Shown here: positions 1,182 to 53,166 of the stretch, one piece after another
Layout: each line of letters starts with the position of its first letter
Position numbering within the stretch: the stretch's first letter is position 1
Assembly (NCBI GenBank): GCA_003518365.1
Contig: DOYU01000021.1
Location: 492-64,491 of the forward strand
DNA length: 64,000 nucleotides
Direction of reading: 5' to 3'
Source: Candidatus Magasanikiibacteriota bacterium
Lineage (GTDB): Bacteria; Patescibacteriota; Patescibacteriia; Magasanikbacterales; UBA922
Made by a program: the position numbers and the translations under genes
Notes under the pieces: model-generated
The model's input: only the letters and a program-made list of their open reading frames with translations
The model's database searches: none
What the model was told of the DNA's origin: nothing

Positions 1182-4100
1182 CTAGGACGATGCCTTCTCT
1201 ACCACCTTCTCTGCTTCTCCGAGCTTCACAGAAAGCAGCCGACTCATCCCATCATTTCCCATCGTGACGCCATAGAGCGCGTCTGCTGCGTGCATACTCA
1301 CACGATTGTGTGTGATGAGGATAAACTGTGACTCGGTTGCAAGCTCTTGCAAGATATTCGTAAAGCGGAGTGTGTTTGCTTCGTCGAGGGCAGCCTCGAC
1401 TTCATCGAGAAAGACAAATGGTGATGGATTGGTGCGAAGAATCGCACACACAAGAGCAATCGATACCATGGTTCGCTCTCCTCCAGAAAGTGACTGAATA
1501 TTTTTAATTTTCTTGCCAGGTGGATTTGCCTTGACATCAATCCCCTGCAAAATTTCTTTGCCGCGCTTTTTCCGCCGACTCTTTGCGTCATCCTCGTCAT
1601 CAAGAAGATCATCTTCAACAAGAAGTGCTTCTTCATCGGTTTCATCTAAGGCGGATCCGCCTTGGGCGGATTCTTCCCCATATATCTCAATTAAATCCGC
1701 TTCCCCACCTTCAAACAGCGTCGTAAAATAGCGCTTGAATTCTGTCTTGATTTGTTTGAATGCCTTTTTTCGTTTTTTTCTCATCATTTCATCGAGCTCG
1801 GCAATAAGTGTTTCCAAATCTTTTGCCGTCTTTGTCAGATCATCGAGCTGCAACGATAAATGACTGTGTCGCGTTTTTGTTTCTTCATATTCATCCATGA
1901 CTTCCTGATCAATGCCGCCGATGAGCGACAATTTGTATTTCAATTTATCTATTTCTGCTTGCACTGCTTCGAGCCTATCCATCGTAAGCATAGTCTCAAC
2001 ACGATTCATCACTTCGCCGAGCGACATGTGGAGCTCGTGATAGATTTCTTCTTCGAGATCTTCCATCTTTGTTTCGAGCTTTGCAATCTCGACTTGGAGC
2101 GTATTGCGCTGTTCAGAGATACCATTAAGTGATGTCTGCACGCCTTGCATCTCATCCTGGAGTGCAAACACTCGTTTTCGTTTCTTTTCTTCTTCTGCAT
2201 TGAATGCATCGATCTTTGCTTGTGCTACGGCAAGTTCTTTTTCGACTGTTTCAATATCGTCATCCAGGGCATCCCGTTCTTGCTGAAGTTTTTTCATTGC
2301 AGCATCATAATCTCCTTCACTCATTGATGAGAGAGACAACTCTTGTTCAAACCCTGCTTTTTCTTTATCTATCTCATGCTTTTGCGATTCGAGAAGCTCT
2401 CGTTTGTTTGTGCGCTTGCCAATCTCTGCTTCGAGTGTTCGCAATGTTTCGTCTTCTTGTCGATGAACAGAGGTAAGCGCCGTAAGTTTGTGGTCAAGAG
2501 AAAGCAGTTCTTCTTTTATTTCTTCTTCATTATATTTTGCTCCATACATGGATTCTTGTGAAAAGCTCAGTCCCGTACTCTTTTGTTTTCGATAGCCACC
2601 TTTCATGCTGCCGCTCTTTTCGAGGATATCTCCATCGAGCGTGACCATGCGCACACGTCCGACACCAATCTCACGAGCAGTCTCGATATCTTCGACAATC
2701 AGCGTATCGCCAAGCACGTACGAAAAAATCTCTTCAAACTTTTCATCATATGTCACAATATCGAGCGCAAGACCAATCACGCCCTTCCTTCCAAGATAGC
2801 TTTCGATATCGTGTGAAATATGTCTCCCACGAATTTTTGTCAGTGGAAGAAATGTTGCATAACCAAGTTTACTTTCACGAAGATATCTGATGCAGCTTTC
2901 TGCCACTCGTTCATCTTCGACAACAATTGACGTCAGGTGCGCGCCTGCTGCGATATCGAGTGCAAGCTGATATTCTGCTGCAACGCGACCAAGCTGCGCC
3001 ACAGCGCCAGACACACCACCAAATCGACGGCGTTCAGACAGAATCGCTTCCACTGCACGCAGTCCCGTGTATTGGAAGACCGACGTTTGGGTTTCTGCCT
3101 CACGGAGCATGCGTTCGAGGTCCTGTTTTTTCCGATGCAATTCTTGTATGTCGAGAGACACCTCTTGCACTTTTTTTATCGCAGACATGCGCTTTTGTAC
3201 AAAGTCTGTTTCTTCTTTTTGTATACGAGCGATCTCATCAGCAAGAGTCGCCACTTTCGTATCCACGTCATCACGCTTTTGCTCAAGCCATCCGATATTT
3301 TGCTTGCCGGCTTGGCTATAGGCTGTCTGCATCCGACCGGAGAGAATTGCTCGTTCACGTTCGAGTTCATTCTTTTTTTTCTGTACATCACTATATGCGC
3401 GCTGCAACTCTGCAAAAACATCTTCACGCGATGCACCTTGCGCCAGGGTCGCAAGTTCTGTCTGAATTTCTGACAACGAACGACTCAGGTCATCGTATGT
3501 TTTTTGGATGCCAAACAAATCACTCCGTCCTTTTTCAAGTGCACTGTGATAATGCCCGCCCAAAGTGACATAGTATCCTTCTTGCAATTCGCGCAGCGCG
3601 ATTTCCACTTCTTTCCGCTGTTCAAGTTTTTTTACTTGTCGAGACAAGGCCTTCAATCGTGGCGTAATTTCGTTCAACAAGAGGGATGCCTGATCAATAT
3701 GTTCCTTACTTTTTCGAAGTTTGAGAAATGATTGGTGTCGCTTAATTTGAAATTCTTTGATGCCAGCCGCTTCGTCAAAAAATGCTTTTCGCTCTGAAGG
3801 AGATTGGAGCAGCATGCGATCGATCGTCCCCTGCCCGATGACGCTGTAAGAACCATGAGCAAACTGCGCTTTTGCTAATAAAATCTGAAGATCAATAAGA
3901 CGAACAGTGCCGCCATTGACCAGATACTCGCTCTCGCCAGAACGATAAAGGTTTCGCGTAATGATCAAATCTTCGTATTCTATTGGCGCGCTGTGATCAC
4001 TATTGTCAAAGTGTAAGCTCACGCTCGCCACACTCATTTGTCCCTTGGTGGCAGACCCGGCAAAAATCACGTCCGCCGTCTTTTTTCCTCGCAATTGCTT

Positions 4101-4480: not shown

Positions 4481-5491
4481 ATGCCAAAACGGGTAGCCAC
4501 CCACATTTTCAAGGCCATCCAGGCAGCGAGAAAGATTCTCCTTGTGTCTCACAAAAATCCTGACGGAGACACGCTCGGATCTCTTGCTGCAATGATGCAA
4601 TACCTTCGCCATATCGAAAAACCACATGTGGCATTTTGTGCTACCGATATTTCTCCGTCACTGATGTTTTTGCCACACATCGACTATGTGACGCATACAC
4701 CGACCGTGTGGGATGATAAAGATATTGATCTCGTGATTGTATTTGATTCATCCAGTCCAGACTATGCTGGGGTAGAACACTTGCTCCCGATTATGAAAGA
4801 ACGTGGTGCACAGATCGCAAATATCGATCATCACAATACCAATCTTCAATATGGAGATTTCAACCTCGTCTTGCCAAAAGCAAGCTCAACGACAGAAATT
4901 GTCCATGACTTTTTTGCGCACAATAAAATAACCATCACACCAGCAATGGCAACATGCCTGCTCACTGGTATCATTACGGATACGGGGAATTTCACCAATG
5001 CAGCGACCACAAAACACTCGATGAATATTGCAAGCAAACTGATTGAAAAAGGCGGCAACATGGCACTCATTCAAGGATGGGTCCTGAAAGATAAGACTAT
5101 CAATGGACTCAAACTCTGGGGCACCGTACTCAGCAGAATGGCGCATCATGAAAAACTAGACATTGTCTACACGTATGTCACAAAAGAAGATATAGCAAAA
5201 CACGGCGTGACCGAACACGAAGTAGAAGGTATTGCAAACTTTATGAATAATATCAAAGATGGACGTGCTGGCATGATTCTAAAGGAAACAGAAGACGGCA
5301 ATTTCAAAGGGAGTTTTCGTACCACACATGATCATGTCGACGTCTCAGCTTTTGCAAAACTCTTTGGTGGCGGTGGACACAAAAAAGCAGCAGGCTTTTC
5401 TGTAGAAGGACCTATCGAACATGCACTCGAACATATCTTCGAAAAAATTCATCTTTTTGAGAATGGCGAACTTGCACTTGCTGAGGTGTAA
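4481..5491 (+). CDS. nrnA: DHH/DHHA1 family phosphoesterase (NrnA-like nanoRNase / pAp phosphatase)
   Basis: LLVSHKNPDGDTLGS, IDHHNTN and the C-terminal GGGGHKKAAGF (DHHA1) motif. Confidence 0.75.
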   Translation: MPKRVATHIFKAIQAARKILLVSHKNPDGDTLGSLAAMMQYLRHIEKPHVAFCATDISPSLMFLPHIDYVTHTPTVWDDKDIDLVIVFDSSSPDYAGVEHLLPIMKERGAQIANIDHHNTNLQYGDFNLVLPKASSTTEIVHDFFAHNKITITPAMATCLLTGIITDTGNFTNAATTKHSMNIASKLIEKGGNMALIQGWVLKDKTINGLKLWGTVLSRMAHHEKLDIVYTYVTKEDIAKHGVTEHEVEGIANFMNNIKDGRAGMILKETEDGNFKGSFRTTHDHVDVSAFAKLFGGGGHKKAAGFSVEGPIEHALEHIFEKIHLFENGELALAEV

Positions 5492-5503
5492 CCATAAAAA
5501 CTC

Positions 5504-5596
5504 TCCCCCTAGTAGGGGGAGTTGGAGGGGGTTACCGCAGAAGCAAGAATAGTGGTAGTCCATAACCCCACCTTAATCCTCCCCTAGTAGGGGAGG
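5504..5596. repeat. Pair of CCCCTAGTAGGGG palindromes flanking a third stem (GGGGTTA...TAACCCC)
   Basis: TCCCCCTAGTAGGGGGA at 5504-5520 and CCTCCCCTAGTAGGGGAGG at 5578-5596. Between them GGGGGTTACC...CATAACCCC can pair. G/C-rich palindromes stand out in AT-rich intergenic DNA. Confidence 0.5.
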
Positions 5597-5610
5597 AAAT
5601 AATAAAAAAA

Positions 5611-5641
5611 CAACTCACAAAAAATGTGAGCTGTTTTTTTA
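5611..5641 (+). terminator. Rho-independent terminator, likely bidirectional
   Basis: CAACTCACA-AAAAT-TGTGAGCTG stem-loop followed by TTTTTTTA. An A-tract precedes it on the other strand. Confidence 0.6.
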
Positions 5642-5776
5642 TTTCAAAAGGTTTCGTCTTTTGTCTTATGCTGAGAAGACTCATCAGTCCAGATATCATC
5701 TGAAAACCTCAATGCGACCCTGCAACACGATACCGAAGCATCGTGGCAGAGTCGCTGCAAGAGAACGTGGGAGGCA

Positions 5777-6274
5777 CTAGTACAGGTAGCGCACCACCTC
5801 GAACGTCTCAATTGCGCCTGGTTGCGGCGCAATCGGGACGAACGCCGAGATGTGCACGCCACCTTCCAGCCCGTCGACTTGGAAGACGTAGTCTTCCGTG
5901 TCCATGGTGAGGAACGCCCCACCGTAGACACCACCGTCGCCGGTGACGCCGAAGACCTCGATCTCGAAGATCATTCCGGCGTAGACCTGTACGGGGATCT
6001 CGCCGACGAACTCGTACTCGAACAGCGCGATGTCCGGATCGATGGGATCCCAGACCTGTTGCGCAAAGCCTGCCTCGTCCACCACGGTCAGCCGACAGAC
6101 CGAGATGCACTCGACCCACGCCAAGGGCGGGGTGATGGTCTCATCGCTCGGCGTCGTCGTGTCCACCTGCTCGGGGCAGGCGGCCTGGACGGGCGCGAGG
6201 GTGTCGGAGTCGCAGGCGGCGGCGAGGGTCAGGGTCAGGGTCAGGGCGATGGTGGCGACGAAGAAGCTACGCAT
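5777..6274 (-). CDS. secreted lipoprotein, paralog 1 of 3, visibly high GC
   Basis: GGAGG SD 7 nt upstream of the ATG at 6274. Signal peptide MRSFFVATIALTLTLTLAAAC with a lipobox-like Cys. Acidic Gly/Pro-rich mature region. Codons are G/C-rich relative to neighbours. ORF track start at 6433 trimmed. Confidence 0.6.
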   Translation of the reverse strand: MRSFFVATIALTLTLTLAAACDSDTLAPVQAACPEQVDTTTPSDETITPPLAWVECISVCRLTVVDEAGFAQQVWDPIDPDIALFEYEFVGEIPVQVYAGMIFEIEVFGVTGDGGVYGGAFLTMDTEDYVFQVDGLEGGVHISAFVPIAPQPGAIETFEVVRYLY

Positions 6275-6435
6275 CGGAATCCTCCGGTGATGCGGTCTCA
6301 CGATGTACTTTACTACAGCATTTCTGCAGCAAGCACGATCGAATGAACCGCACCACCAACATGTTCTCTTGCATTGTAAAAAGCATGTCAAAAGAGGTAC
6401 TTGTGTCCTATTTTGAACGGCTGAATATAACATAA

Positions 6436-6565
6436 AAACACACTTTTGTCAAGTGTATAACTAAAAAAATTGCCTTATGTTAGCAATTTTCTTCTTTTTT
6501 AGAAGTTTGCAAACAGTCGACGCAGCGCACTCCGAAGAGCGCGCCGCGTCGACCGCGAAGAAAGA
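6436..6565. repeat. Duplicated 3'-flank segment of the lipoprotein cassette, copy a
   Basis: TTTTGTCAAGTGT...AAAAAATTGCCTTATGTTAGCAATTT...GCGCAGCGCACTCCGAAGAGCGCGCCGCGTCG aligns with 7240-7370. Ends in a GC-rich hairpin. Confidence 0.6.
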
Positions 6566-7102
6566 TCAGATGCCGTCTTGCCATCCGGGGTCGTAGACCA
6601 CTTGAATGGTGTACCTGCTCCCAGGTGTCCAGTCGTAGATGGGAAATCTCAGCTTTGGTGAGGTCTCGACACCATCATTGACTCGCAGGAGAAATTTGAA
6701 CATGAGGTTGTGGGACACGAGTTCGAGTGTCACACCGCCATTCATAGGGGGCGCGACCATCAGCTCGACCTCGATCTCTGCACCTTCAAGGAGCTGAAAA
6801 TCGAAGATCTCGTTACTCGCGAGATACTCATCGAGCGTAGGTCCCTCTTCATCACTCACATAGTACTCTCCATGAAAGAACCAAATGGGAGCGACCTCCC
6901 CATCCGGCAGGGTGACCGTCACCTTCCACACACCATTGGCCCAGAGAGAAGCGAAGGCTCCTTCTCCACCATAATGAAAGGTGATGCTTGGCTCAGAGGA
7001 ATCTTCCTCCTGCGGAATTTCCACATCTGGAAGGATGGTGGTGTCACAGCCGCCAGAGCTGTAGACGAAACCGAACAGAGCGAGAAAGATAAGTGCGTGC
7101 AT
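6566..7102 (-). CDS. secreted lipoprotein, paralog 2 of 3
   Basis: MHALIFLALFGFVYSSGGC signal/lipobox with GAGGT SD. Shares ...LDEYLASNEIFDFQLLEGAEIEVELMVAPPMNGG... with paralog 3 (LDGYLAENEFLDFELTEGQTIHVELIESPPENGA). Confidence 0.55.
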   Translation of the reverse strand: MHALIFLALFGFVYSSGGCDTTILPDVEIPQEEDSSEPSITFHYGGEGAFASLWANGVWKVTVTLPDGEVAPIWFFHGEYYVSDEEGPTLDEYLASNEIFDFQLLEGAEIEVELMVAPPMNGGVTLELVSHNLMFKFLLRVNDGVETSPKLRFPIYDWTPGSRYTIQVVYDPGWQDGI

Positions 7103-7239
7103 GAAATACCTCAGTGTGAATGCGACCATTCGTCAACGTACGGGACCACCCCGCACGTAAACGTATCAATCACATCCACATGACGTTGATCTTTCAAACG
7201 TATGATACCATACGTTTGACAGTAAAAAATAGCAGAAAA

Positions 7240-7376
7240 AACAATTTTGTCAAGTGTCCAAATAAAAAATTGCCTCATATTAGCAATTTCAAATATTTTT
7301 CAAAAGTGAAGCGAAGCGGCCGGCGCAGCGCTGCAACTCCGAAGAGTGCGCGCCACGCCGGTCGCAAGGTGAGAGA
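7240..7376. repeat. Duplicated 3'-flank segment of the lipoprotein cassette, copy b
   Basis: ACAATTTTGTCAAGTGTCCAAATAAAAAATTGCCTCATATTAGCAATTT...GCGGCCGGCGCAGCGCTGCAACTCCGAAGAGTGCGCGCCACGCCGGTCGC. Confidence 0.6.
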
Positions 7377-7895
7377 TCAGGAGCAGGTGCCGTCCGGCAC
7401 GAGCTCCACGAAGTAGGCACGAGGTTCACCCACCGATGTGTAGATGGGCAGATAACACGTGGGCACTCCCCGGTTATTCGTGAACTGATACGCCTGTTGA
7501 TGGGAGACCAAGGTCATCTGCTCGGCACCATTCTCTGGTGGAGATTCGATGAGCTCGACATGGATGGTCTGTCCCTCTGTCAGCTCAAAATCCAGGAACT
7601 CATTCTCCGCCAGGTAGCCATCCAGCTTCCCGGCATCTTCATCAAGGACTTCGTACGGTCCAAGAGAGCGCCAAATCGAAGCAGCAGACCCGTCCGGATT
7701 AAGAACGCTGATCTCGCAGGCTCCTCGGCACCAAAAGGTTCCAAAGTTCTTCTCTCCGAGGTCATGCACTACAACTTTTGCGCCGTCTGCCTTCCCGACC
7801 TTTGGTGTGTCGGATATGCCCTCAATGTCCACATCGCAACCACCAATGAAGATGGCGACCAGCGCAAGAATCATGGTGATAATCGTGAGATGCAT
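7377..7895 (-). CDS. secreted lipoprotein, paralog 3 of 3
   Basis: GGAGGA SD upstream of the ATG at 7895. MHLTIITMILALVAIFIGGC signal/lipobox. Homologous to paralog 2. Confidence 0.55.
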   Translation of the reverse strand: MHLTIITMILALVAIFIGGCDVDIEGISDTPKVGKADGAKVVVHDLGEKNFGTFWCRGACEISVLNPDGSAASIWRSLGPYEVLDEDAGKLDGYLAENEFLDFELTEGQTIHVELIESPPENGAEQMTLVSHQQAYQFTNNRGVPTCYLPIYTSVGEPRAYFVELVPDGTCS

Positions 7896-8190
7896 CGCGT
7901 CCTCCATAGAAGTATGAATACGACCATTCGTCAGCGTACGGGACCACCCCGAACACAAACGTATCTGCCGCATCCATACTTCTGTGATCTCTCAAAAATA
8001 TCATATCAAACTAGGAGTATTTTTCCTAGTTTGAATAGATGAAGATAGCGTATTTTGCGACGTTTGTCAATATATTAAATATCTGGCTGTATTGCTTACG
8101 CATGTTTCATTGTCAAATTGTTACATTGTTATATTGTTGATGATATTAAATAGATTGATATATGATAATTGTTATTTGCTATCTGAAATG

Positions 8191-8284: not shown

Positions 8285-8875
8285 ATGTTTATGCATTCTC
8301 AATACCTCATCCCAACCGTCATCGAAAAAACATCACACGGTGAACGTGCATACGATATTTACTCTCGCCTTTTGAAAGATCGCATTATTTTTCTTGGCAG
8401 CGCGATCGATGACGGCGTCGCAAATACCATCATCGCTCAGCTCCTCTTCCTGGCAAATCAAGACGCGGAAAAAGATATCAAACTCTATATCAACTCCCCT
8501 GGTGGATCCGTCACCGCAGGTATGGCCATCTACGACACCATGCAATTTGTAAAACCACATGTTTCGACGATTTGTATCGGCATGGCAGCAAGTATGGGAT
8601 CAGTCCTCCTCGCAGCAGGAGAAAAAGGAAAACGTTTTGTCCTCCCAAATAGTGAAGTGATGATTCATCAAGTCCTCGGTGGGACACAAGGGCAAGCAAG
8701 TGATATTCAGATTCATGCAGAACGCATTGTCAAAATGAAAAAACATCTGAATGAAATTCTTGCAAAACACTGTGGCCAAACATTTGAAAAAGTAGAAAAA
8801 GACGCAGACCGAGATTACTTCATGAGTGCGGAAGAAGCTGTGACATACGGACTTGTGGACAAAGTTATATCGTAG
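8285..8875 (+). CDS. clpP: ATP-dependent Clp protease proteolytic subunit
   Basis: [37 protein letters not shown]...[14 protein letters not shown] (catalytic Ser) ...MIHQVLGG (His). Confidence 0.95.
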
Positions 8876-11732: not shown

Positions 11733-14399
11733 TTATGACAACGTATCTACCAATGAGTCTGCCAATCCAATATATTTTTCTGGTGTCAGTGTAAAAAGAA
11801 ATTGTTTGTCTTCTTCAGAAATATCAAGTGTTGCGACAAAATTCCTAATTGTTAGGCTATCAAGTCGTGTTCCCCTACTCAATTCTTTTAATCGTTCATA
11901 CGCATCCTGCTGTCCATACTTTCGCAACATGGTTTGGATTGCTTCGGTAACGATTTCCGGATGTGCCTGCAATTCTTGCACAAGCGCAGACTGATTTGGG
12001 GTAATCGTAGCCATTCCTTTTATCATACTTTTTACTGCCAAGAATGCATGCGCAAGTGCTACGCCTTGATTGCGTATCATTGTGCTTCCGCTAAGATCTC
12101 TTTGCATACGTGAGACTGGCAGATGCGTCGCCAATGTTGTAAACAATCCGTTGGCAAGAGCAATATTGCCTTCAGCATGTTCAAAGTGAATCGGATTTAC
12201 TTTATGCGGCATGGTACTTGATCCAACATGTTCTTTCTCTACCATTTGTCCAAACATTCCTCGACTAATATAGAGCCACATGTCTCGCGCCAGATCGAGA
12301 AGGATGGTATTTATACGAGAAACAATCTGATAACTTTCTGCAAGTGAATCATATGTATTGACTTGCGTCGTGAGCAGTAATTGTTCAAAGCCAAGGCTTG
12401 CAAGAAATGATTTGTGAAATCGAGGCCAGTCCACGTGCGCATCGAGTATCTGGTGTGCAGCAAACGTTCCTGTTGCCCCACTGCACTTTGCATCAAATGT
12501 CATGTTTGTAAGATTCGCACGCTGCTTTTTCAGTCTCTCTACAAAGACGGCAATTTCTTTCCCGACCGTAGTGGGTGTTGCCGCTTGTCCATGCGTGAGG
12601 GCAAGCATGGGGAGTCTCGCATGTGTCTTTGCAAATGTGGTTAGTGTGCTCATCAATCTATCAAGCGTTGGAACAAAGACCGTGCTCAGTGAATCACGCC
12701 AGAGTGACAGATATGCAATGTTATTGATATCTTCTGATGTCAGTGCGATATGAATAAAGGGAATTGCATGTGAAAGACCAAGCAATGGCAATCGTTCTTG
12801 CAAAAATATTTCAACGGCTTTTACATCATGATGAATCCTTTTTTCAATCTGTTTTACACGCGCAGCATCTTCGAGAGAAAACAATGTTGAAATGTTTCTA
12901 AGCTGCTCTTTTTGTATGTCTGAAAACGAAACCAACGCCGTGAAGGTTGTTTCTTCTGCGAGTGCAATAAGATATGCAATTTCAATATGCACACGAGAGC
13001 GAATCAATGCGTATTCTGAATGATATGCTGCAAGTTCTTGGACTTGTTCATAATATCGTCCGTCGATTGGGGAAATAGCAGTCAATGCGTTGTCAGCACC
13101 TTCTGCAAGATGTGAAGACAACACAACGGTTTCTGAACGCTTTGGACCAAATGACACAATACCGATCGGACACCCGACTTCTTTTTCTATGAAAGAGAGA
13201 TATGTCTGCACTGCAGGGTCAAATCCTTGCATCGTTGTTGGCATCTCGCCTGTGTACACCTGTTGCCATCCAGAGAGCGTGGTGTACACGGGCTGCGCCT
13301 TTCGCATGTCAGACAAACTTGCCGGCATTTCGTGAACAAGTTTTCCATCAATATAATACGCCGTACATACCTTCAATTCATCAAATCCATTCAAGACATC
13401 GAGCTTTGTAATTGCAATTTCAGTGAGTGGATGTACGCGGGCACTTTGCCTTACTTGCACCAAATCAAGCCAACCAATGCGACGCGCTCTCCCTGTCGTT
13501 GTCCCATATTCTTGTCCAAGTTCGCGGATACGGTCCCCGACCGAATCAGTCAATTCTGTCACAAACGGACTTGTCCCGACACGACTAACGTATGCTTTTA
13601 CCACACCGACAATCCGCTTTGGCGCATTGATGCCAAGTCCACTTCCGACTTCTGCGTGCGCTGCGACATTGTTTGAACTTGTCGTATGTGGATACAATCC
13701 ATGATCAGGATCGAGTGACATTCCTTGTGCTCCTTCAAAAAGGATACGTTTCCCTGCTGTATACGCGTGTGCGAGTTCCACTTCGGTATCAGCAATATAT
13801 TGTTTGAGTTGTTGTCCGTATGCAAGATATTGATTCGTGATTTCTTCTTTTGAAGATTGGAAGGTGCCACGAAGAACATTGGTAATCATGCCCACGTTGA
13901 AATCATACGCTTTGTCCAATTTTTCTCGAAACAGCTCTGGCTCGAGCAAATCGCCCATACGAATTCCATGGCGATACATTTTATCTGCATAGACCGGGGC
14001 AATACCACGCTTGGTGCTTCCGGCAGCGAGCGCACCCTGATGCCCAGAGAGTGCTTCATCCATGGCAATGTGATACGGCATGATGACATGCGCGCGTTCG
14101 CTGATAGCAAGTTTCAGTGGTCTACCGTTTTTTGTGATTTCTGCGATTTCTCCGAGAAGCACGCTGGGATCAATGACAACGCCATTTCCTATCACAGAAT
14201 GGGTGTGTTCAGATACCACGCCACAGGGCAACAGATGCAATTTGTATGTTTGTTCTCCAACGACAATCGTATGCCCAGCATTATTTCCTCCGTGAAATCG
14301 AACAACATACTCTGCATCACTCGCAAGCACATCTGTGATTTTTCCTTTCCCCTCATCCCCCCATTGAGCACCCACGACAACGGTTGTTTGTGGTTTCAT
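11733..14399 (-). CDS. purA-purB: bifunctional adenylosuccinate synthetase / adenylosuccinate lyase fusion (PurA-PurB)
   Basis: N-terminal half MKPQTTVVVGAQWGDEGKGKITD...GGNNAGHT...GTTTGRARR is PurA. After a short linker (VLSSHLAEGADNA), LTAISPIDGRYYEQVQEL...THGQAATPTTVGKE...RDLSGSTMIRN...LTPEKYIGLA is PurB. The track shows one uninterrupted 888-aa ORF. Confidence 0.8.
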   Translation of the reverse strand: MKPQTTVVVGAQWGDEGKGKITDVLASDAEYVVRFHGGNNAGHTIVVGEQTYKLHLLPCGVVSEHTHSVIGNGVVIDPSVLLGEIAEITKNGRPLKLAISERAHVIMPYHIAMDEALSGHQGALAAGSTKRGIAPVYADKMYRHGIRMGDLLEPELFREKLDKAYDFNVGMITNVLRGTFQSSKEEITNQYLAYGQQLKQYIADTEVELAHAYTAGKRILFEGAQGMSLDPDHGLYPHTTSSNNVAAHAEVGSGLGINAPKRIVGVVKAYVSRVGTSPFVTELTDSVGDRIRELGQEYGTTTGRARRIGWLDLVQVRQSARVHPLTEIAITKLDVLNGFDELKVCTAYYIDGKLVHEMPASLSDMRKAQPVYTTLSGWQQVYTGEMPTTMQGFDPAVQTYLSFIEKEVGCPIGIVSFGPKRSETVVLSSHLAEGADNALTAISPIDGRYYEQVQELAAYHSEYALIRSRVHIEIAYLIALAEETTFTALVSFSDIQKEQLRNISTLFSLEDAARVKQIEKRIHHDVKAVEIFLQERLPLLGLSHAIPFIHIALTSEDINNIAYLSLWRDSLSTVFVPTLDRLMSTLTTFAKTHARLPMLALTHGQAATPTTVGKEIAVFVERLKKQRANLTNMTFDAKCSGATGTFAAHQILDAHVDWPRFHKSFLASLGFEQLLLTTQVNTYDSLAESYQIVSRINTILLDLARDMWLYISRGMFGQMVEKEHVGSSTMPHKVNPIHFEHAEGNIALANGLFTTLATHLPVSRMQRDLSGSTMIRNQGVALAHAFLAVKSMIKGMATITPNQSALVQELQAHPEIVTEAIQTMLRKYGQQDAYERLKELSRGTRLDSLTIRNFVATLDISEEDKQFLFTLTPEKYIGLADSLVDTLS

Positions 14400-17540: not shown

Positions 17541-17609
17541 AGAATGTAGGATCTTGAATGCAGAATATGGAATGTTGAATGCAACATTCTACATTCTATA
17601 TTCCACATT

Positions 17610-18524
17610 CTACAATACAAAAAGTGCTGAGCCCAGTATAACAAATATCATCGCCACTGTCTGTACGGCAATCTCTCGACGAGAAAATGTTTCTTTCAAA
17701 ACACGTGGCGCAAATTTGGTGAGGAGCACGATGAAGAGGGTCATCAAGGCATACTGCACACCAACAAGTGCATTCACGAGCGTCACACTACCAACTGCGA
17801 TCGCGAGCTGGATGAGGACCACACCGACCACGCCGAGGACTTTGTTACTCACAATAATCAGTATGCCTCTGACGCCGCGAAACGCAGCGTTTTCTCCTTC
17901 TGCTTTTTTCACTCGATGAAACGTATTGCGAACAGCAGGAGAAAAAAGACAAACAATCCCAACCAACCCGGTCGTGGCGCGCGTCCACACAAATCCGGTG
18001 AGAAATGGATAGAGTTCATACAAATATTTTGCTGTCACGTGTGAGATAGCAAAGAGAAGAGCCGCAAGGATTCCCCACGCAAAACTGCTGTTGAATTCTA
18101 CAAGCCCTTTCTCATTAAAAAATGCGAGTAACAATGTTGCTCCTGCAAGCACTGCCATGCCGGCGATCTCAATCGTGCGAAGTGTTTCCCCGAGAAAAAC
18201 AAACGCGAGCACAAAAATAACAATGGTAATCATCGCGCCAATAAATGGGTTGATATGGCTTGCTTCTCCCTTTTTTACGGACAAAAACATTGCCCACAAA
18301 CCAAATCCAAATCCAAGCCCAGAGACAAGTGCCCAGAGCCAATCAATCCCATGTAAAAGCCCTACTCCAAACGGAAACGCAAGCAGCGCGCCAAACATGA
18401 AGATGGTAGAATAAAACGTATACACAATAGGATTGCTAAGTGTTTTTGTGAGGATCAATTTGTCGAGCACAAACACAATCGCAAGTGCAACGTATCCGGC
18501 AAGAGCAAGAAGTAACCAAAGCAT
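17610..18524 (-). CDS. EamA/DMT-superfamily membrane transporter
   Basis: 10 predicted TM helices in two 5-TM halves. Gly-rich TM segments typical of EamA-like proteins. Confidence 0.5.
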   Translation of the reverse strand: MLWLLLALAGYVALAIVFVLDKLILTKTLSNPIVYTFYSTIFMFGALLAFPFGVGLLHGIDWLWALVSGLGFGFGLWAMFLSVKKGEASHINPFIGAMITIVIFVLAFVFLGETLRTIEIAGMAVLAGATLLLAFFNEKGLVEFNSSFAWGILAALLFAISHVTAKYLYELYPFLTGFVWTRATTGLVGIVCLFSPAVRNTFHRVKKAEGENAAFRGVRGILIIVSNKVLGVVGVVLIQLAIAVGSVTLVNALVGVQYALMTLFIVLLTKFAPRVLKETFSRREIAVQTVAMIFVILGSALFVL

Positions 18525-21410: not shown

Positions 21411-21482
21411 TGGGCGCATCGTATAGTGGTAGTACATTGGTCTCCAAAACCAATTGCGTGGGTTCGATTCCTACTGCGCCTG
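21411..21482 (+). tRNA. trnW: tRNA-Trp (anticodon CCA)
   Basis: Manual cloverleaf: acceptor GGGCGCA/TGCGCCT, anticodon stem TTGGT/ACCAA, loop CTCCAAA, T-loop TTCGATT. No encoded 3' CCA. Confidence 0.8.
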
Positions 21483-21538
21483 CACTGGAAAACATACCAA
21501 AAATAAGGTATGTTTTTATAGATAATAGAATAAACGAT

Positions 21539-22176: not shown

Positions 22177-22827
22177 ATGTATAGAAAAGGAGAAGTCATA
22201 GGTGTCGGGAATGACAAACGCATATATGCTGACGCAATAACTCCTGAGACAAGAGTTATTGCTGAATTTCGCAAGGAACAAACACCTGAAGAAATAAAGA
22301 GTGTGTACTATCTTGGGAACATAGCTCATATATTATTCCCTCAAAATGTACCCAAAGTATATGAAGCAGGGATGCATCCACAAGAACATACGAAAGTAGA
22401 AAGAAAAAAGGTGGATGTCAATCATAAAAATACGGCTGATCTCATGGTGACATACGAAGATTATTTCATGGGAGATGGTGAAACGGGACCTTCTTCAGAA
22501 GAAGATAGTGAGATGGATGTAGATATAGAAAAAAAAGAAACCGATCCAAGAGTAAAACAACTTTTAACAAAAGCGTCTTCTGTCGGATTATATTTTGATA
22601 CAGGCGGACAAAATTTTTCTTTTGACGATTTGGGTACTGTCCAATATCTTGAAGTGAATCCAGCATTTCATATAGAAAAAAACCACGTCCGTTTGCACTT
22701 CAACGAAAGCAAATTAAGAGATGCCATACAAGCATTAGAAAATGAAAAAGAGAAAAAAAAGGCTACACTATATTTCGAACGATTGATGTCTTTGATCCAA
22801 GTAGCACAAAATAATCTTATACAATAG
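22177..22827 (+). CDS. hypothetical protein (216 aa), no recognisable family
   Basis: Complete ORF followed by the terminator at 22917-22946. Acidic middle segment (SSEEDSEMDVDIEKKETD). Confidence 0.4.
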   Translation: MYRKGEVIGVGNDKRIYADAITPETRVIAEFRKEQTPEEIKSVYYLGNIAHILFPQNVPKVYEAGMHPQEHTKVERKKVDVNHKNTADLMVTYEDYFMGDGETGPSSEEDSEMDVDIEKKETDPRVKQLLTKASSVGLYFDTGGQNFSFDDLGTVQYLEVNPAFHIEKNHVRLHFNESKLRDAIQALENEKEKKKATLYFERLMSLIQVAQNNLIQ

Positions 22828-22916
22828 TTCCAACTTCCTCCTTCCTCTACGATCCCCTGCACCTCCTGCAGTAGCTCCTGCCGGCAGGCAGGTTAGCGAA
22901 GGCACGGCACTTGAAA

Positions 22917-22946
22917 AACAGAGTGAAAAACACTCTGTTTTTCTTT
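22917..22946 (+). terminator. Rho-independent terminator
   Basis: AACAGAGTG-AAAAA-CACTCTGTT perfect 9-bp stem followed by TTTTCTTTTT. Confidence 0.7.
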
Positions 22947-22975
22947 TTGACATGAAGGGAAGAACGGAGTATTGT
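22947..22975 (+). promoter_or_regulatory. promoter candidate for the defence operon (TTGACA-17-TATTGT)
   Basis: -35 at 22947-22952, -10 at 22970-22975, directly after the terminator and 28 nt before the XRE gene ATG. Confidence 0.4.
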
Positions 22976-23002
22976 ACAAGTAAACATATACATTATATTG
23001 GT

Positions 23003-23212
23003 ATGGCTCATCAAAAAAATACAATCGGAAAAAACATCAAACGATTACGGCAAGAACAAAAAATTTCCCAAGATCGTCTTTCAAAACTTGCGGATCTTTC
23101 TTTGAATACTATTGTTACCGTTGAAAGTGGCGCAAACGAAAATCCTACTATTGATACGCTCACAAGGATTGCGAAAGCGTTTCAAGTTGGCGTGGATGAC
23201 CTCATAACATAA
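23003..23212 (+). CDS. XRE-family helix-turn-helix transcriptional regulator (69 aa)
   Basis: MAHQKNTIGKNIKRLRQEQKISQDRLSKLADLSLNTIVTVESGANENPTIDTLTRIAKAF is a classic HTH_3. ORF track start at 22952 trimmed. Its size and position resemble R-M controller (C) proteins. Confidence 0.8.
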   Translation: MAHQKNTIGKNIKRLRQEQKISQDRLSKLADLSLNTIVTVESGANENPTIDTLTRIAKAFQVGVDDLIT

Positions 23213-23220
23213 CACCCACT

Positions 23221-24198
23221 ATGTCTAAACAAACACCTACCAATAATCTCGCTATCTACCAAGCTAAAAACGGCGCGATTGAATTTCGCGGTGATTTTGA
23301 GCAAGAGACGGTTTGGGGAAATTTAAATCAAATTGCCGATCTTTTTGGTCGCGACAAGTCCGTTGTTTCCCGCCATATAAAAAACATCTATAAAACAGGC
23401 GAATTAAACGAAACGGCAACTGTTGCAAAAATTGCAACAGTTCAAAAGGAAGGAAGGAGAGAAGTGATGCGTGAAATTGAGTACTTCAACCTTGATGTTA
23501 TTTTGTCCGTTGGGTACAGAGTAGATTCCAAGCAAGCCACGCAATTCCGCAAATGGTCAACGCAAGCGCTCAAGGCACACCTTGTAGACGGGTATACCAT
23601 CAACAAAAAACGCATCGGTAATAACTACGAACACTTTTTGCGTGCAGTGGCAGAAACAAAAGCACTCCTCCCTGTGGGCAACAAGGTTTCTACCGAGGAT
23701 ATACTTGAACTCGTGAACGCATTTGCTGCTACGTGGTTTTCGCTCGATGCATATGACAAAGACGCATTTCCTCAAAAAACAGCCTCAAAAAAGTCAGTTT
23801 CAGTTGACACTGTAAAGCTACTCAATGCGATTGGTGAGTTGAAGCAAGAACTGATAACCAAAAAGCAAGCAACAAACCTATTTGCACAAGAAAGGAAGAC
23901 GGGAACAGTAGAAGGAATCGTCGGAAATGTATTTCAGTCTGCCTTTGGCAAAGATGTATATCCAAGTATAGAAGAAAAGGCCGCACACATCCTCTACTTC
24001 ATGGTAAAAAATCATCCATTCACCGATGGCAACAAGCGCAGCGGAGCCTTTGCATTTGTTTGGTTTCTACGAAAAGCTGGTTTACTCCGACCAAGTCTTA
24101 CTCCAGAAGCGTTGACTGCCATTACCCTCCTCATTGCAGAGAGTAATCCAAAAGATAAAGACAAAATGGTGGGACTAGTGGTGATGTTAATCAAATAA
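23221..24198 (+). CDS. RhuM-family / Fic-DOC-like protein
   Basis: N-terminal NLAIYQAKNGAIEFRGDFEQETVW...KIATVQKEGRREVMREIEYFNLDVILSVGYRV is the RhuM signature. C-terminal HPFTDGNKRSGAF matches the Fic/Doc motif HxFx(D/E)GNxR. Confidence 0.7.
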   Translation: MSKQTPTNNLAIYQAKNGAIEFRGDFEQETVWGNLNQIADLFGRDKSVVSRHIKNIYKTGELNETATVAKIATVQKEGRREVMREIEYFNLDVILSVGYRVDSKQATQFRKWSTQALKAHLVDGYTINKKRIGNNYEHFLRAVAETKALLPVGNKVSTEDILELVNAFAATWFSLDAYDKDAFPQKTASKKSVSVDTVKLLNAIGELKQELITKKQATNLFAQERKTGTVEGIVGNVFQSAFGKDVYPSIEEKAAHILYFMVKNHPFTDGNKRSGAFAFVWFLRKAGLLRPSLTPEALTAITLLIAESNPKDKDKMVGLVVMLIK

Positions 24199-24200
24199 CT

Positions 24201-25322
24201 ATGGCAAATAAAAACCTTACAAAAGCAAAAAAGGCAAAAAATGATGAATTTTATACTCAATTTTCAGATATTCAAAAAGAAGTTGAGTCTTATCTTGAGT
24301 ATAACCCAGATACTTTTAAAGATAAGATAATTTACAGTAATTGTGACGACCCGTTCGAAAGTAATTTCTTTCGCTATTTTGTATTAAATTTTGATCGTTT
24401 AGGACTAAAGAGACTTATTTCAACGAGCTACAAACCCTCACCTGTTGCCAATACGCAACTGGGATTATTTGGCGATGACAAAACACTTGAAAAAGTAAAA
24501 GGCCGTCCAAAAGTAACCGCTAACAAATTCATCATCAACGAAGTTGGCGATATCGACGGCGACGGCTCTTTTACGCTAGAAGATATTGCCCAACAGCTTC
24601 GAGCGAATAAAAATAACGAATGGACTCCGCTTGAGGGCGATGGTGATTTTAGAAGTGCCGAATGTGTCGAGTTGCTCAAACAATCTGACATCGTAGTTAC
24701 TAATCCTCCATTTAGTTTATTCCGTGAATATATTACGCAACTTTTCGAACACAAAAAGCAATTTCTAATTATTGGTAGCATGAACTCAATTACTTACAAA
24801 GAAATCTTTGTGTTGATTAAAAATAATAAATTGTGGTTAGGTAATGGGTTTAATGCTGGCAATGCATATTTTTCAACTCCCAATGCGCGAAAAGATTTTG
24901 CTTCTGGTGTGTATGATGAAAAAACTGGTCTTGTAAAATTTCGGAATTGTCATTGGTTTACTAATTTAGATCATGGTCGTCGTCATCAGCCTCTTAATCT
25001 GATGACAACAAATGAAAACCTAAGATTTAATAAAAAAATGCAAGGCAAAACTACTTATGATCGTTATGACAATTATGACGCTATTGATGTACCATTTACA
25101 AAAGCTATCCCTTCTGACTACGAAGGAGTAATGGGTGTTCCTATAAGCTTTCTCGATAAGTACAATCCTAATCAGTTTGAGATATTGGGCTCTGACACAG
25201 ACATAAAAGAAGGTAAACTTCCACTTTTAATAATAAGTAAATGGAATGGAAAGCTAGACAGAGGTTATATACATGGAAAGAGAATCTTCAGTAGAATGTT
25301 TATTAAGCACAAAAAGAAATAA
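24201..25322 (+). CDS. N6-adenine DNA methyltransferase, M.EcoRI-like family
   Basis: Collinear with my recollection of M.EcoRI: [17 protein letters not shown]..., [48 protein letters not shown] (NPPF catalytic motif IV), [39 protein letters not shown]. Low GC. Confidence 0.8.
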
Positions 25323-25323
25323 T

Positions 25324-26487
25324 ATGAAAACAACCTTAAAAAATGATATCACCGTTAAAGAAGTTTGCGACGGCTTTGAATACAACGAATTTGAAGGAAA
25401 AGGTTTGTTTGGTCTCTCTGGCAAACTAACTATTCAGCCAGAGTATCAGCGTAATTATATTTATGCTGACGGCAAACGTGACGTTGCTGTAATTGACTCA
25501 ATTTTAAAGGGTTATCCTATCGGTTTGATCTATTTCAATCAGGCTGGTAAAGACGAGTTTGAAGTATTAGATGGTCAACAGCGCATCACGAGTATAGGTC
25601 GTTTTGTTACTGGCAAATTTGCTGTTAAAGATAAAAACGGTCACGAGCAATACTACAGCGGTATGTCTGAGAGTCAGCGTGAGCAAATTATGAAGACTAA
25701 GTTGTTGGTGTATGTGTGCGAAGGTGACGAGCCTGAGATCAAAGATTGGTTCAAGACTATTAACATTGCTGGAGTGCCATTAACTGAACAAGAGATTCTT
25801 AACGCGGTATATTCTGGGCCATTCGTTACTCGAGCTCGTGAAGAGTTTAGTAATAGTCAAAATACCAACATCCAGAAATGGAGTGCGTACATCGCAGGTG
25901 ATATCAAGCGTCAGGCATACTTGGAACGAGCTCTAGATTGGGTTTCTGATGGATCAATCGATAGTTATATGAGCAAACACCGCAATGACAAAAATATTAC
26001 TGAACTAAAAAAACATTTTGATACTATCATTGACTGGGTCTCAACTATCTTTACTGACGTTGAGAGCGATATGAAAGGCCTTGAGTGGAACAGGATTTAT
26101 GAGACATATCACAAGAAGAAATACAATCCGACTACCATCTCTGCTTCTGTTCAGAAGCTCTATGCTGATGGTTTCGTAAAAAGTCGCAAAGGCATTTTTG
26201 AATATGTTTTAGGCGGAGAAGTTGAAACTAAACTACTTGAAATACGAGTATTTGAGGACTCAACAAAACGTTCAGTTTACGAAGCTCAAACTGCTATTGC
26301 AAAGAAAAAAGGTGTTTCAAACTGTCCACATTGTGCTATTGGGCATGATGCCAATAAAGAAAAAATTTGGACTTTAAGCGATATGGATGCTGATCATGTG
26401 GCTGCTTGGAGTAAAGGTGGAAAAACGGAAGCAAAAAACTGTGAGATGTTGTGTAAAACGCATAATCGTGCCAAAGGTAATCGGTAA
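25324..26487 (+). CDS. DUF262 (ParB-like) plus C-terminal HNH nuclease, GmrSD-like
   Basis: [13 protein letters not shown] (DGQQR motif of DUF262). C-terminal CPHCAIGHD...[32 protein letters not shown] is an HNH motif. Its ATG lies 1 nt after the methyltransferase stop. Confidence 0.75.
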
Positions 26488-26493
26488 AATATT

Positions 26494-29219: not shown

Positions 29220-29220
29220 C

Positions 29221-30999: not shown

Positions 31000-31010
31000 T
31001 TATTAAACAT

Positions 31011-36758: not shown

Positions 36759-37283
36759 ATGGCTGCAACGCAGGGAGATATCGAACAACTCTTCATGACA
36801 CTCTACGACACGTATCAAGATGCGATTTTTCGGCATTGCTATTTTCGTGTCTATCATCGAGAGATTGCAAAAGAGCTTGCGCAAGAAGCATTCATGAAGG
36901 TCTGGAACTATCTGCAAAAAGGAAATACACTCGAACACCCCAAAGCATTTCTCTATAAAATAGCGACAAACACAGTCATCGACTACCGGCGACGAAAAAA
37001 AGAACAATCACTGGAACAACTCCAAGACACAGGATTTCAAATCGCTGATACCGATCGAATGGAAGAAACCGTGGACGGGAATATGGCCATGGCACACCTC
37101 AGAGAAGTCCTCGACACGCTCGAAGACATCTATCGCGAAGCCTTTCTCTTACGCTATATCGAAGGATTGAAACCAAAAGAAATCGCCGTGATGACTGGCG
37201 AAACCGTGAATGTCATCTCAGTAAGAATCACAAGGGCAAAACGTCAGGTACAGCAGAAGATGAAACACATCCCAACGGTATGA
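36759..37283 (+). CDS. ECF-type RNA polymerase sigma factor (sigma-70 regions 2 and 4)
   Basis: LFMTLYDTYQDAIFRHCYFRV...AQEAFMKVW (region 2.1-2.2); LRYIEGLKPKEIAVMTGETVNVISVRITRAKRQ (region 4 HTH). Confidence 0.8.
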   Translation: MAATQGDIEQLFMTLYDTYQDAIFRHCYFRVYHREIAKELAQEAFMKVWNYLQKGNTLEHPKAFLYKIATNTVIDYRRRKKEQSLEQLQDTGFQIADTDRMEETVDGNMAMAHLREVLDTLEDIYREAFLLRYIEGLKPKEIAVMTGETVNVISVRITRAKRQVQQKMKHIPTV

Positions 37284-38868: not shown

Positions 38869-39001
38869 GTGGGTGACCTAAAAATTTGTTTACAGAATAG
38901 ACTCTCATATACTGAATGACGTTCAAACGTGCAGCATGTTACTTTCTCACGATTCTATCGTATACTATAGTAGAAGCATACAAAAAGATATCTTTTTCCC
39001 C

Positions 39002-53046: not shown

Positions 53047-53064
53047 AATAAATCCTGATATGCG

Positions 53065-53108
53065 GATAATCCAGATCAACAGATACGTATCCGTGGATCT
53101 GGATTATC
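53065..53108. promoter_or_regulatory. Nested inverted repeat (13-bp GATAATCCAGATC arms enclosing the palindrome GATACGTATC) in the 5' region of the membrane-protein gene
   Basis: GATAATCCAGATC...GATCTGGATTATC with a central GATACGTATC. A GGATATCC palindrome follows immediately. Confidence 0.4.
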
Positions 53109-53166
53109 TGGATATCCGTATGCTGCTACAAACAAAAACACCCCTGTTACGGGGCGTAGTGTACCA

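Follow-up and report, generated by a model that had tools for sequence, protein, structure and literature searches.

A 64,000-nucleotide stretch of DNA (hereafter the window; 42.7 % GC) from a Candidatus Magasanikiibacteriota bacterium (contig DOYU01000021.1 of GenBank assembly GCA_003518365.1) carries a small array of three minus-strand open reading frames (ORFs) in the ORF list, here named p1, p2 and p3, which are bounded by a convergent gene for a DHH/DHHA1 phosphoesterase (4481-5491, with SMC adjoining) and by a divergent ClpP gene (8285-8875). Each of the three genes forms a unit of its own, composed of a promoter, a 5'-terminal hairpin, a long leader hairpin at the Shine-Dalgarno sequence (SD), the coding sequence (CDS), a hairpin capped by C(UUCG)G and a terminator. 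With a probability that we put at roughly 0.55, the site between ClpP and DHH is a variable surface-lipoprotein locus of autonomous cassettes with structured untranslated regions (UTRs). The elements of the array, in window coordinates and in 5' to 3' order along the minus strand (aa, amino acids; nt, nucleotides; bp, base pairs; GC3, GC content at third codon positions), are as follows.

8042-8070, minus strand: p3 promoter, TTGACA, 17 nt, TATCTT (10 of 12 consensus matches; same position in relatives)
8006-8034, minus strand: p3 5'-terminal hairpin TCAAACTAGGA...TCCTAGTTTGA (homologous hairpins with compensatory changes in other cassettes)
7905-7986, minus strand: p3 long leader hairpin, type X (3' arm reaching the GGAGG SD at 7901-7905; 5 compensatory pairs)
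7377-7895, minus strand: p3 CDS, putative lipoprotein precursor of 172 aa (GC 54.5 %, GC3 0.624)
7316-7365, minus strand: p3 3'-UTR GC-rich hairpin with C(UUCG)G loop (-36.9 kcal/mol)
7260-7290, minus strand: p3 intrinsic terminator AAATTGCTAATATGAGGCAATTTTTT
7226-7253, minus strand: p2 promoter, TTGACA, 16 nt, TATTTT, extended -10 TG
7191-7222, minus strand: p2 5'-terminal hairpin
7111-7183, minus strand: p2 long leader hairpin, type X (GAGG SD next to it)
6566-7102, minus strand: p2 CDS, putative lipoprotein precursor of 178 aa (GC 53.1 %, GC3 0.609)
6513-6556, minus strand: p2 3'-UTR 20-bp GC hairpin with C(UUCG)G loop (-40.3 kcal/mol, z -8.1)
6466-6490, minus strand: p2 intrinsic terminator
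6424-6452, minus strand: p1 promoter, TTGACA, 17 nt, TATATT, extended -10 TG (11 of 12 consensus matches)
6388-6416, minus strand: p1 5'-terminal hairpin
6284-6359, minus strand: p1 long leader hairpin, type Y (abuts the GGAGG SD at 6281-6285)
5777-6274, minus strand: p1 CDS, putative lipoprotein precursor of 165 aa (GC 64.5 %, GC3 0.867)
5714-5755, minus strand: p1 3'-UTR hairpin with C(UUCG)G loop (-30.3 kcal/mol)
5601-5643, no strand assigned: hairpin resembling a terminator, separating the array from the convergent DHH gene (both strands have T runs)

The start codons adopted here for p1 to p3 are the ATG codons found 5-6 nt 3' of a GGAGG or GAGG box. Public records hold the 165-aa p1 with an identical start, and the products of p2 and p3 correspond to NCBI proteins UV82_C0014G0010 and UV82_C0014G0011 (strain GW2011_GWD2_4...), whose models of 187 and 176 aa, respectively, begin upstream of the SD-supported ATG, in the leader hairpin and without an SD. 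We take these NCBI starts, at 7102-7129 and 7895-7907, to be gene-call errors placed too far upstream. The idea that the leader encodes an N-terminal extension of the protein was rejected, as a stop codon lies just upstream of the start of the 187-aa p2 ORF, inside the leader, and as the leader copies differ by indels, including some that are not multiples of three, and by substitutions that preserve base pairing.

All promoters combine TTGACA and a spacer of 16-17 nt with TATATT, TATTTT or TATCTT, the -10 box being extended by TG in those of p1 and p2. The 5'-terminal hairpin (TCAAxxTAGGA...TCCTAxxTTGA) starts about 7 nt past the -10 box and is predicted to form the very 5' end of the mRNA; a function of this hairpin as a transcription attenuator was considered and rejected as a general feature, given that a U-run is found nearby only in the cassettes of the p3/pX type (pX is a gene of a related lineage described below). 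After a short spacer follows the long leader hairpin, nearly perfect over 25-35 bp, the 3' arm of which finishes at an SD that is mostly unpaired in the predicted leader folds. When compared to dinucleotide shuffles, the folding z-scores of the leaders were -6.4 for p3 (147-nt leader), -7.1 for p2 and -5.6 for p1, and a covariance model matched the p3 leader at 7896-7994 (E 6e-21) and that of p2 at 7103-7196 (E 2e-23). The trailer consists of a GC-rich hairpin of about 20 bp with a C(UUCG)G cap, located 10-25 nt past the stop codon and with a folding energy (dG) of -30 to -40 kcal/mol, 3' of which come the intrinsic terminator and then the next promoter. The hairpin at 5601-5643 could act in both directions. 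The duplicated flanks described in the original prediction, which had been made by reading the sequence alone, are real and unique to the array: on the 5' side, 7113-7213 and 7911-8011 share 78 % identity over 101 nt, including a core of 31 nt that differs at one position (T/C), and on the 3' side 6424-6569 and 7226-7380 are 74 % identical over 157 nt, with blocks at 85-94 %. Neither flank motif was seen elsewhere in the 64 kb, and shuffled sequences gave 0 matches. The duplications thus represent functional modules, the 3' one comprising trailer hairpin, terminator and promoter and the 5' one the type X leader hairpin.

With regard to the proteins, p1, p2, p3 and the p1 ortholog of a sister lineage match a PS51257-type lipobox regular expression (Cys within the first ~35 residues and none of the 6 residues before it charged), with the Cys at residue 16-21 (Cys21 in p1, Cys19 in p2 and Cys20 in p3, hence residue 19-21 in the window proteins), preceded by a hydrophobic core with a mean Kyte-Doolittle value of 1.75-2.6. 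The lipobox Cys is the sole Cys of p2; p1 also has Cys33 and a CxxxC at 56/60, and p3 a CxxxC at 56/60 followed by Cys at 147 and 171. The mature parts are acidic, as the earlier description had it (isoelectric point 4.05-4.22; 25-28 Asp plus Glu versus 2-9 Lys plus Arg), but calling them Gly/Pro-rich overstated a content of 9-10 % Gly and 6-7.5 % Pro. The three genes had also been presented as paralogs encoding secreted lipoproteins. Precursors of the lipoprotein type, with a signal peptide and a lipobox Cys, are what we find in all three, and p2 and p3 are clear paralogs (37 % identity, E 1e-31), sharing the motif quoted in that description (LDEYLASNEIFDFQL in one, LDGYLAENEFLDFEL in the other). 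For p1, only a remote relationship is suggested by a BLASTP match to p3 (E 0.001 over 25 residues, including the CxxxC at 56/60 in both), by a profile-profile comparison (E 0.024 with two-sequence profiles), and by an hhalign comparison of the p1 pair with six pX/p2-type sequences, four homologs having been added (E 2e-4, probability 46 %, 148 collinear columns). The signal peptide of p1 contains a LTLTLTL run (6225-6246, minus strand) encoded by a perfect (AGGGTC)x3.7 repeat on the plus strand, as found with the repeat finder TRF; a run of this type is shorter in the p1 ortholog of L004, which suggests slippage-driven length variation of the hydrophobic region of this signal peptide.

Searches of all cassette proteins against Pfam, NCBIfam and PDB sequence profiles matched nothing, and no homolog outside four closely related Magasanikbacteria lineages was found in 5.8 billion proteins or in an exhaustive hidden Markov model (HMM) scan of 1.84 billion representatives. 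The exhaustive HMM search with a p2+p3 profile returned the proteins themselves and weak multi-stretch matches to giant repeat proteins with Ig-like or prealbumin-like domains, a relationship that we did not retain and treat as compositional or generic beta-strand resemblance. The cassette proteins would, based on these searches, be an orphan family confined to one clade. All relatives are found at the ClpP-DHH site, which is syntenic in the four lineages (the window genome being one of them), and the DHH gene places these lineages at about equal distances from one another (about 90 % aa identity, synonymous divergence dS about 1.1). In these genomes the site carries a different set of cassettes in each lineage:

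Window: p3, p2 and p1
L004/L005/L003/L001 (CG_4_10_14_0.8_um_filter_42_12): pX, a p1 ortholog and an inserted HigB-like toxin/antitoxin pair
L013: P0016 (p3/pX-type) and p2b (92 % identical to p2), a p1-type gene being absent
L007-L012 (CG10_big_fil_rev): P0017 (pX-type) and pZ

Of these, pX is a p3-type gene whose product is 47 % identical to p3, the p1 ortholog next to it is 77 % identical to p1, and pZ encodes a Cys-rich lipoprotein of 203 aa whose mature part is unrelated to that of p1, the signal peptide alone being shared. Other elements were noted around the site. A HigB/ParE-like toxin gene (88 aa) together with a partner of 65 aa is inserted between the p1 ortholog and DHH solely in the sister lineage (L004 8156-8640; also in L001 and L003). 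A segment of about 100 nt that extends from the DHH stop codon to the array terminator (window 5495-5600; L004 6385-6490) contains two GC-rich palindromes, CTCCCCCTAGTAGGGGGAG and CCTCCCCTAGTAGGGGAGG; L013 lacks this segment at the same place, and similar palindromes (CCCCTCCTTACGAAGGAGGGG and related) are located at the other side of the array in L004. This segment could be a small element resembling repetitive extragenic palindromes or miniature inverted-repeat transposable elements, at the edges of a variable locus.

Across these lineages the RNA modules are conserved. Six copies of the type X leader hairpin are 72-89 % identical, and 98 % of their cells are paired versus 31-48 % once the 3' partners are slid; five pairs show compensatory double changes, and the covariation score was 0.283 versus 0.204, with 0 of 500 shuffles as high. 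The type Y hairpin is 93-96 % identical across three lineages, all changes in its stem being structure-preserving, and for comparison the flanking ClpP and DHH genes are 82-86 % identical at the nucleotide level (proportion of synonymous differences, pS, 0.52-0.62). The covariance model of type X detected the Y leader of pZ (E 1e-3) and nothing further in the 64 kb, which points to a relationship between the two leader types and to their restriction to this locus. In the trailers, CTTCGG is invariant in 9/9 cassettes, with stems that differ and dG values of -22 to -40 kcal/mol. Leaders are, in all, 66-89 % identical versus 47-60 % for the CDSs. Rfam 15, searched at E values up to 10, gave nothing on the long leader hairpins and no match at gathering score, returning only chance terminator-like matches at 5570-5712 and three weak ones (6408-6568, 7183-7306 and 8134-8187), and the core motif of the leader had 0 matches in a metagenome scan and, in a genome scan, matched only the known sister lineage and, by chance, one sequence in Gemmatimonas. 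Two uncatalogued UTR RNA structures with support from covariation are thus present at this locus.

The coding parts behave differently. The CDSs of p2 and p3 are 48 % identical at the nucleotide level and saturated at synonymous sites (pS 0.78) versus 74-92 % identity in the non-coding modules, so that the flanks must be either constrained or homogenised; moreover, a p2-type cassette lies beside one of p3/pX type in L013, and hence the duplication is not a private event of the window genome. The proposal that a unit was copied as a whole cassette and then diverged is supported in that whole cassettes are indeed repeated, but its second step does not fit these identities or the L013 pair. When the window is compared with L007, similarity runs through the promoter, the Y leader and the signal peptide down to position 6200, is absent from 6199 to 5771, and comes back at 5770, immediately past the stop codon, so that precisely the segment coding for the mature domain has been replaced. 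Signal peptides are mosaic as well, that of pX resembling that of p2, and that of P0016 resembling that of p3. Values of dS are likewise discordant, with 0.23 for p2 and p2b as opposed to 1.3 for the DHH genes of the same two genomes, and 0.47 for p1 and its ortholog as opposed to 0.9-1.75 for five flanking genes. The low dS of the cassettes suggests exchange between lineages by recombination in the conserved modules.

A pattern typical of proteins under diversifying pressure had been proposed for these genes, and here the evidence is divided. Between the window and L004, nonsynonymous divergence (dN) is 0.15 for p1 and 0.48 for p3 (against pX) compared to 0.03-0.19 for the five flanking genes, which amounts to 0.8-15 times the values of the latter, and aa identity is 47 % between p3 and pX as opposed to 76-96 % in flanking genes. 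The rate is therefore raised, but the pairwise dN/dS ratios (omega) that the original prediction had called for do not demonstrate positive selection, being 0.13-0.33 gene-wide, with 0.03-0.12 in neighbours. The maximum was reached in the N-terminal 60 codons of pX-type genes (0.38-0.64, versus 0.07-0.10 in the C-terminal part), which comprise the signal peptide and an N-terminal mature stretch modelled with low confidence in both structural models discussed below; the omega of 1.8 obtained for the first 50 codons of p1 is based on 2.7 synonymous differences and is not meaningful. Fast or relaxed evolution combined with allele replacement, rather than demonstrated positive selection, is how we would read these substitution data.

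The coding DNA had been judged G/C-rich by eye, and computing it bore this out, as GC3 is 0.867, 0.609 and 0.624 in p1, p2 and p3 compared to 0.378 +/- 0.081 (maximum 0.616) in 42 other ORFs of the window, p1 being up to 6 standard deviations above their mean. GC at first and second codon positions is raised too, and A-ending codons account for 6-14 % in cassette genes versus 29 % in neighbours. The intergenic parts of the array have 43-45 % GC, so that the rise coincides with the reading frames; promoters, leaders and terminators are host-like in composition, and the signal-peptide codons share the rise. By cassette, GC3 is 0.92 in pZ, 0.87 in p1, 0.83 in P0016, 0.76 in the p1 ortholog, 0.73 in pX, 0.70 in P0017, 0.65 in p2b, 0.62 in p3 and 0.61 in p2. 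Public gene calls also appear to be wrong in these GC-rich frames: besides the start codons placed too far upstream, an antisense ORF of 273 aa was called in GCA_002773145.1 (L007 1903-2724, minus strand) in place of pZ (1921-2532, plus strand). Only one other ORF of the window is as GC3-rich as p2 and p3, namely a 358-aa ORF at 41211-42287 on the minus strand (GC3 0.616), which has no Pfam match and no signal peptide, lies just after two gene pairs resembling extracytoplasmic function (ECF) sigma factors and anti-sigma factors, and is a candidate for a separate case of foreign origin or compositional outlier.

The explanation offered by the original prediction, namely that a cassette was acquired from a high-GC donor, amplified locally and is now diverging and ameliorating, accounts for the size of the anomaly, which involves all codon positions, and for a GC3 that varies from 0.61 to 0.92 among copies and lineages, as incomplete amelioration would give. 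Codon bias linked to expression does not compete with it as a cause, and we rejected such bias in view of the GC3 of 0.33 in the highly expressed S16 gene and of 0.42 in ClpP. In spite of this, we consider a foreign cassette unlikely. The search for a donor lineage returned matches in Magasanikbacteria only, with no homolog in any other taxon; the locus is syntenic in four lineages separated by a dS of about 1; no tRNA lies within 13 kb of the array, the window ORFs examined include no gene for a recombinase or an integrase, and no attC-like site was found, which leaves a recent foreign origin unsupported. Among the features expected of genomic islands, atypical composition is present, but donor homologs, patchy presence, and mobility genes, tRNA or border repeats were not found. 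Furthermore, the rise follows the reading frames behind host-like control regions and occurs in every type of cassette, and the bias is common to three mature domains that are un- or barely related to one another (p1, pX/p2 and pZ), although the leaders and signal peptides in front of them are homologous and native, so that several precise in-frame insertions would be needed if the cassettes were foreign. Another view, in which frequent recombination has raised GC3 through GC-biased gene conversion as a side effect devoid of function, draws on the recombination signs at the locus (discordant dS and mosaic signal peptides) and on the tendency of recombining bacterial genes toward higher GC3 (Lassalle et al. 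2015, PMC4450053). It is, however, weakened by p2/p2b, since this cassette was the last to be exchanged (dS 0.23) and yet has a GC3 (0.61-0.65) below that of all others. The flanks, which recombine just as much, show no GC enrichment except in hairpin stems, and values up to 0.92 in a genome of 43 % GC are far above what we would expect from such a process, all of which makes conversion alone quite improbable. Ancient transfer, in-situ drive by selection on mRNA or translation, and GC-biased conversion are the candidate sources of the high GC3, and an extreme GC3 confined to frames that stand behind native control regions bears on the debate among transfer, selection and biased conversion.

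Two further alternatives were weighed. The X and Y leaders might be sensing or regulatory RNAs, whether as protein-binding sites, as substrates of RNase III processing and autoregulation or as riboswitch-like elements, that couple lipoprotein expression to events such as host contact. The identity of the Y hairpin across lineages, beyond structural need, the detection of the Y leader of pZ by the X model and the position of the SD immediately 3' of the helix all speak for such a role, and near-perfect helices of 25-35 bp are long enough for RNase III. However, no Rfam family matches them, the simple unbranched hairpin lacks an evident pocket for a ligand, and the predicted folds leave the SD largely unpaired. 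Within the 64 kb the motif was found ahead of array genes only, and stems with -30 to -40 kcal/mol are too stable to melt in the manner of a thermometer; we hold this role to be possible but doubtful. Programmed variation of a known type, be it an integron array, the target of a diversity-generating retroelement (DGR), or a locus made phase-variable by homopolymers or an invertase, would agree with the cassette-like look of the array, with the hairpin-forming sequences between the ORFs and with the T-runs of 5-9 in several promoter spacers. These readings were largely refuted by the window, assembly and repeat checks, and we regard them as extremely unlikely: the window contains no RYYYAAC...GTTRRRY pair, and each cassette has its own promoter; blastn finds flank matches from cassette to cassette only, with no template repeat or other copy of the array in the 64 kb; no reverse transcriptase, integrase or invertase is encoded by the neighbouring or scanned ORFs; independent assemblies of one lineage (L003/4/5 and L007-L012) have identical promoter tracts; and no promoter is flanked by inverted repeats.

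We therefore return to the variable surface-lipoprotein locus as our preferred explanation. Each cassette would be transcribed from its own near-consensus sigma-70 promoter into an mRNA that starts with the 5'-terminal hairpin, the long near-perfect hairpin would end at the SD, the CDS would encode a Sec/lipobox precursor, and the C(UUCG)G-capped hairpin past the stop codon followed by the intrinsic terminator would close the transcript. By analogy, the terminal hairpins might protect this transcript from 5'-end-dependent and 3'-exonucleolytic decay. Precedents for transcript stabilisation are, in fact, provided by the 5' stem-loop of ompA mRNA and by the 3' retroregulator hairpin of cry. In slpA, similarly, a 5' UTR stem-loop belongs to a stable mRNA for a highly expressed surface protein, with a half-life of about 15 min (PMC10221546). 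A codon usage that is poor in A and favours G or C endings may be part of the same stabilising design, and mRNAs stabilised in this way would lead to abundant small acidic lipoproteins on the outer face of the cell membrane, where they might play a role in host or phage contact. Homology arms would at the same time be provided by the conserved modules outside the coding parts and, to some extent, by the signal peptides; through these arms strains could exchange or replace whole cassettes or the mature-domain-coding segment alone, the coding parts otherwise changing several-fold faster than their neighbours.

We acknowledge that several observations weigh against this interpretation. The comparison covers four Magasanikbacteria lineages including the window, which is a small sample, and the low dS of the cassettes could stem in part from selection on synonymous sites, as reflected in GC3, instead of recombination. 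The lipobox expression fails in pX, at position -4 only (Tyr), and neither p2 (MHALIF...) nor p3 (MHLTII...) has Lys or Arg in its n-region; p1 has Arg2, as do the relatives of p3 type. No Lgt or LspA domain was seen among 36 window ORFs scanned against Pfam (reporting thresholds of 1e-5 to 0.01), the rest of the genome not having been searched. AlphaFold2, run on 2- and 4-sequence alignments, returned all-beta models of low confidence (predicted local distance difference test, pLDDT, 40 and 52), which makes both fold and surface role guesses, and Foldseek, which had been recommended along with structure prediction, found nothing below E 0.05 in the PDB with the pLDDT-52 model, its best matches, MmpS5 and C2 domains, not being significant; a beta-sandwich is probably the fold, based on these models. 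The Y hairpin is conserved in sequence and not in structure alone, hinting at a sequence-specific partner and not at a passive stabiliser, and the stabilising role itself is argued by analogy. Finally, checks for attC sites, DGR, homopolymers, invertases and internal repeats found no switching mechanism.

A bolder possibility is that the 5'-terminal and X/Y leader hairpins, the C(UUCG)G trailer and the A-depleted, G/C-ending recoding of the frames constitute a dedicated and so far undescribed system in bacteria of the candidate phyla radiation (CPR), which would yield nuclease-resistant or specifically regulated mRNAs for surface lipoproteins and, at the same time, conserved recombination arms by which populations shuffle mature-domain alleles. 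Although this is speculative and in our opinion unlikely, it would imply an antigenic-variation-like strategy for the contact surface of an episymbiont, and the X/Y leader would belong to a class of cis-acting RNAs not described before, with a partner that recognises its sequence. A literature search on lipoproteins of Magasanikbacteria found no papers.

Elsewhere in the window, a low-GC block on the plus strand from about 22177 to 31000 (GC3 0.23-0.40) resembles a defence island, with genes for a RhuM/Fic protein, an EcoRI-type adenine methyltransferase, a GmrSD-N nuclease, a DUF2779 protein and a SIR2-like protein, followed by a HerA-type helicase; a tRNA-Trp gene is located just upstream, at 21412-21483. 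An 888-aa ORF at 11733-14399 on the minus strand has an ortholog in L005 that starts with the GDEGKGK motif of adenylosuccinate synthetase and carries the fumarate-lyase-type signature SSTMPHKVNP in its C-terminal half, which, judged by eye, would make it an apparent PurA-PurB fusion. Two long inverted repeats, at 17545-17614 and 53052-53121 (33-nt arms with a 4-nt loop, and a palindrome with 38-nt arms), are unrelated in sequence to the hairpins of the array. Two genes for ECF-type sigma factors lie within 36759-38626 and 38936-41067 on the plus strand; the first overlaps a DUF5667 gene at its downstream side, and after the second comes an ORF of 499 aa that has no Pfam match; these genes and their downstream partners are possible sigma/anti-sigma pairs.

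The array shares features with several known systems. Like integron cassettes, it consists of short ORFs between hairpin-forming imperfect palindromes, but no attC core sites or integrase were found, the cassettes have their own promoters and terminators, and the locus is syntenic and chromosomal in all relatives. MmpS5-like proteins (Foldseek 9mvz_A and 8em5_A) are, like those predicted here, small and anchored to the membrane by their N-terminus, with an all-beta extracytoplasmic domain; the match, however, is not significant (E 0.05-0.1 and TM-score 0.26-0.40 with the pLDDT-52 model), and the array has no MmpL/RND (resistance-nodulation-division) partner beside it, hence we do not claim membership. 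Hypervariable loci that evolve by allelic replacement include capsule and O-antigen loci and the alleles of pneumococcal surface proteins. These similarly occupy a fixed site between housekeeping genes and have conserved flanks, unrelated alleles and a divergence discordant with the flanks, but here single small genes are involved, the arms would consist of signal-peptide codons and RNA modules of the UTRs, and the breakpoints fall at the boundaries of the mature protein.

Stable hairpins at the ends of mRNAs are known from the 5' stem-loop of E. coli ompA and the 3' 'positive retroregulator' of the B. thuringiensis cry genes. The cassettes resemble these mRNAs, and that of Lactobacillus slpA (PMC10221546), in that a strong promoter is combined with a stable stem-loop at or close to the 5' end of a long 5' UTR, an exposed ribosome-binding site and a strong 3' hairpin. 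They differ from them in having two leader hairpins, one of 25-35 bp, and in that their elements are conserved in sequence across paralogous cassettes and have no Rfam family.

Variable lipoprotein clusters have been described in Mollicutes, namely vlp of Mycoplasma hyorhinis, vsp of M. bovis and vsa of M. pulmonis. These clusters also belong to host-dependent bacteria with small genomes and consist of tandem lipoprotein genes on the same strand, in separate transcription units, with a conserved 5' region that partly covers the signal peptide before divergent mature regions, and with gene sets that vary by strain; here, too, a conserved 5' region precedes divergent mature regions, as p1 and pZ share only leader and signal peptide. 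The differences are that internal repeats are missing from the mature regions (TRF finds only the hexamer repeat in the p1 signal-peptide codons), that no poly-A/T promoter switch or invertase was detected, that each locus has only 2-3 genes, and that the sequences have no homology to the loci of Mollicutes. Hairpin modules at both the 5' and 3' sides and GC3-rich recoding are not known as features of the vlp, vsp or vsa loci. The locus described here would accordingly be a variant of a theme known from Mollicutes, now seen in a CPR lineage and with an orphan family, to which it adds uncatalogued structured UTR modules and a GC3 anomaly confined to the reading frames. Attachment to other cells is the presumed way of life of CPR bacteria, and the surface molecules that mediate this contact, or vary in it, are almost unexplored; a strain-variable set of putative orphan lipoproteins encoded at a fixed site would offer concrete candidates for such molecules.

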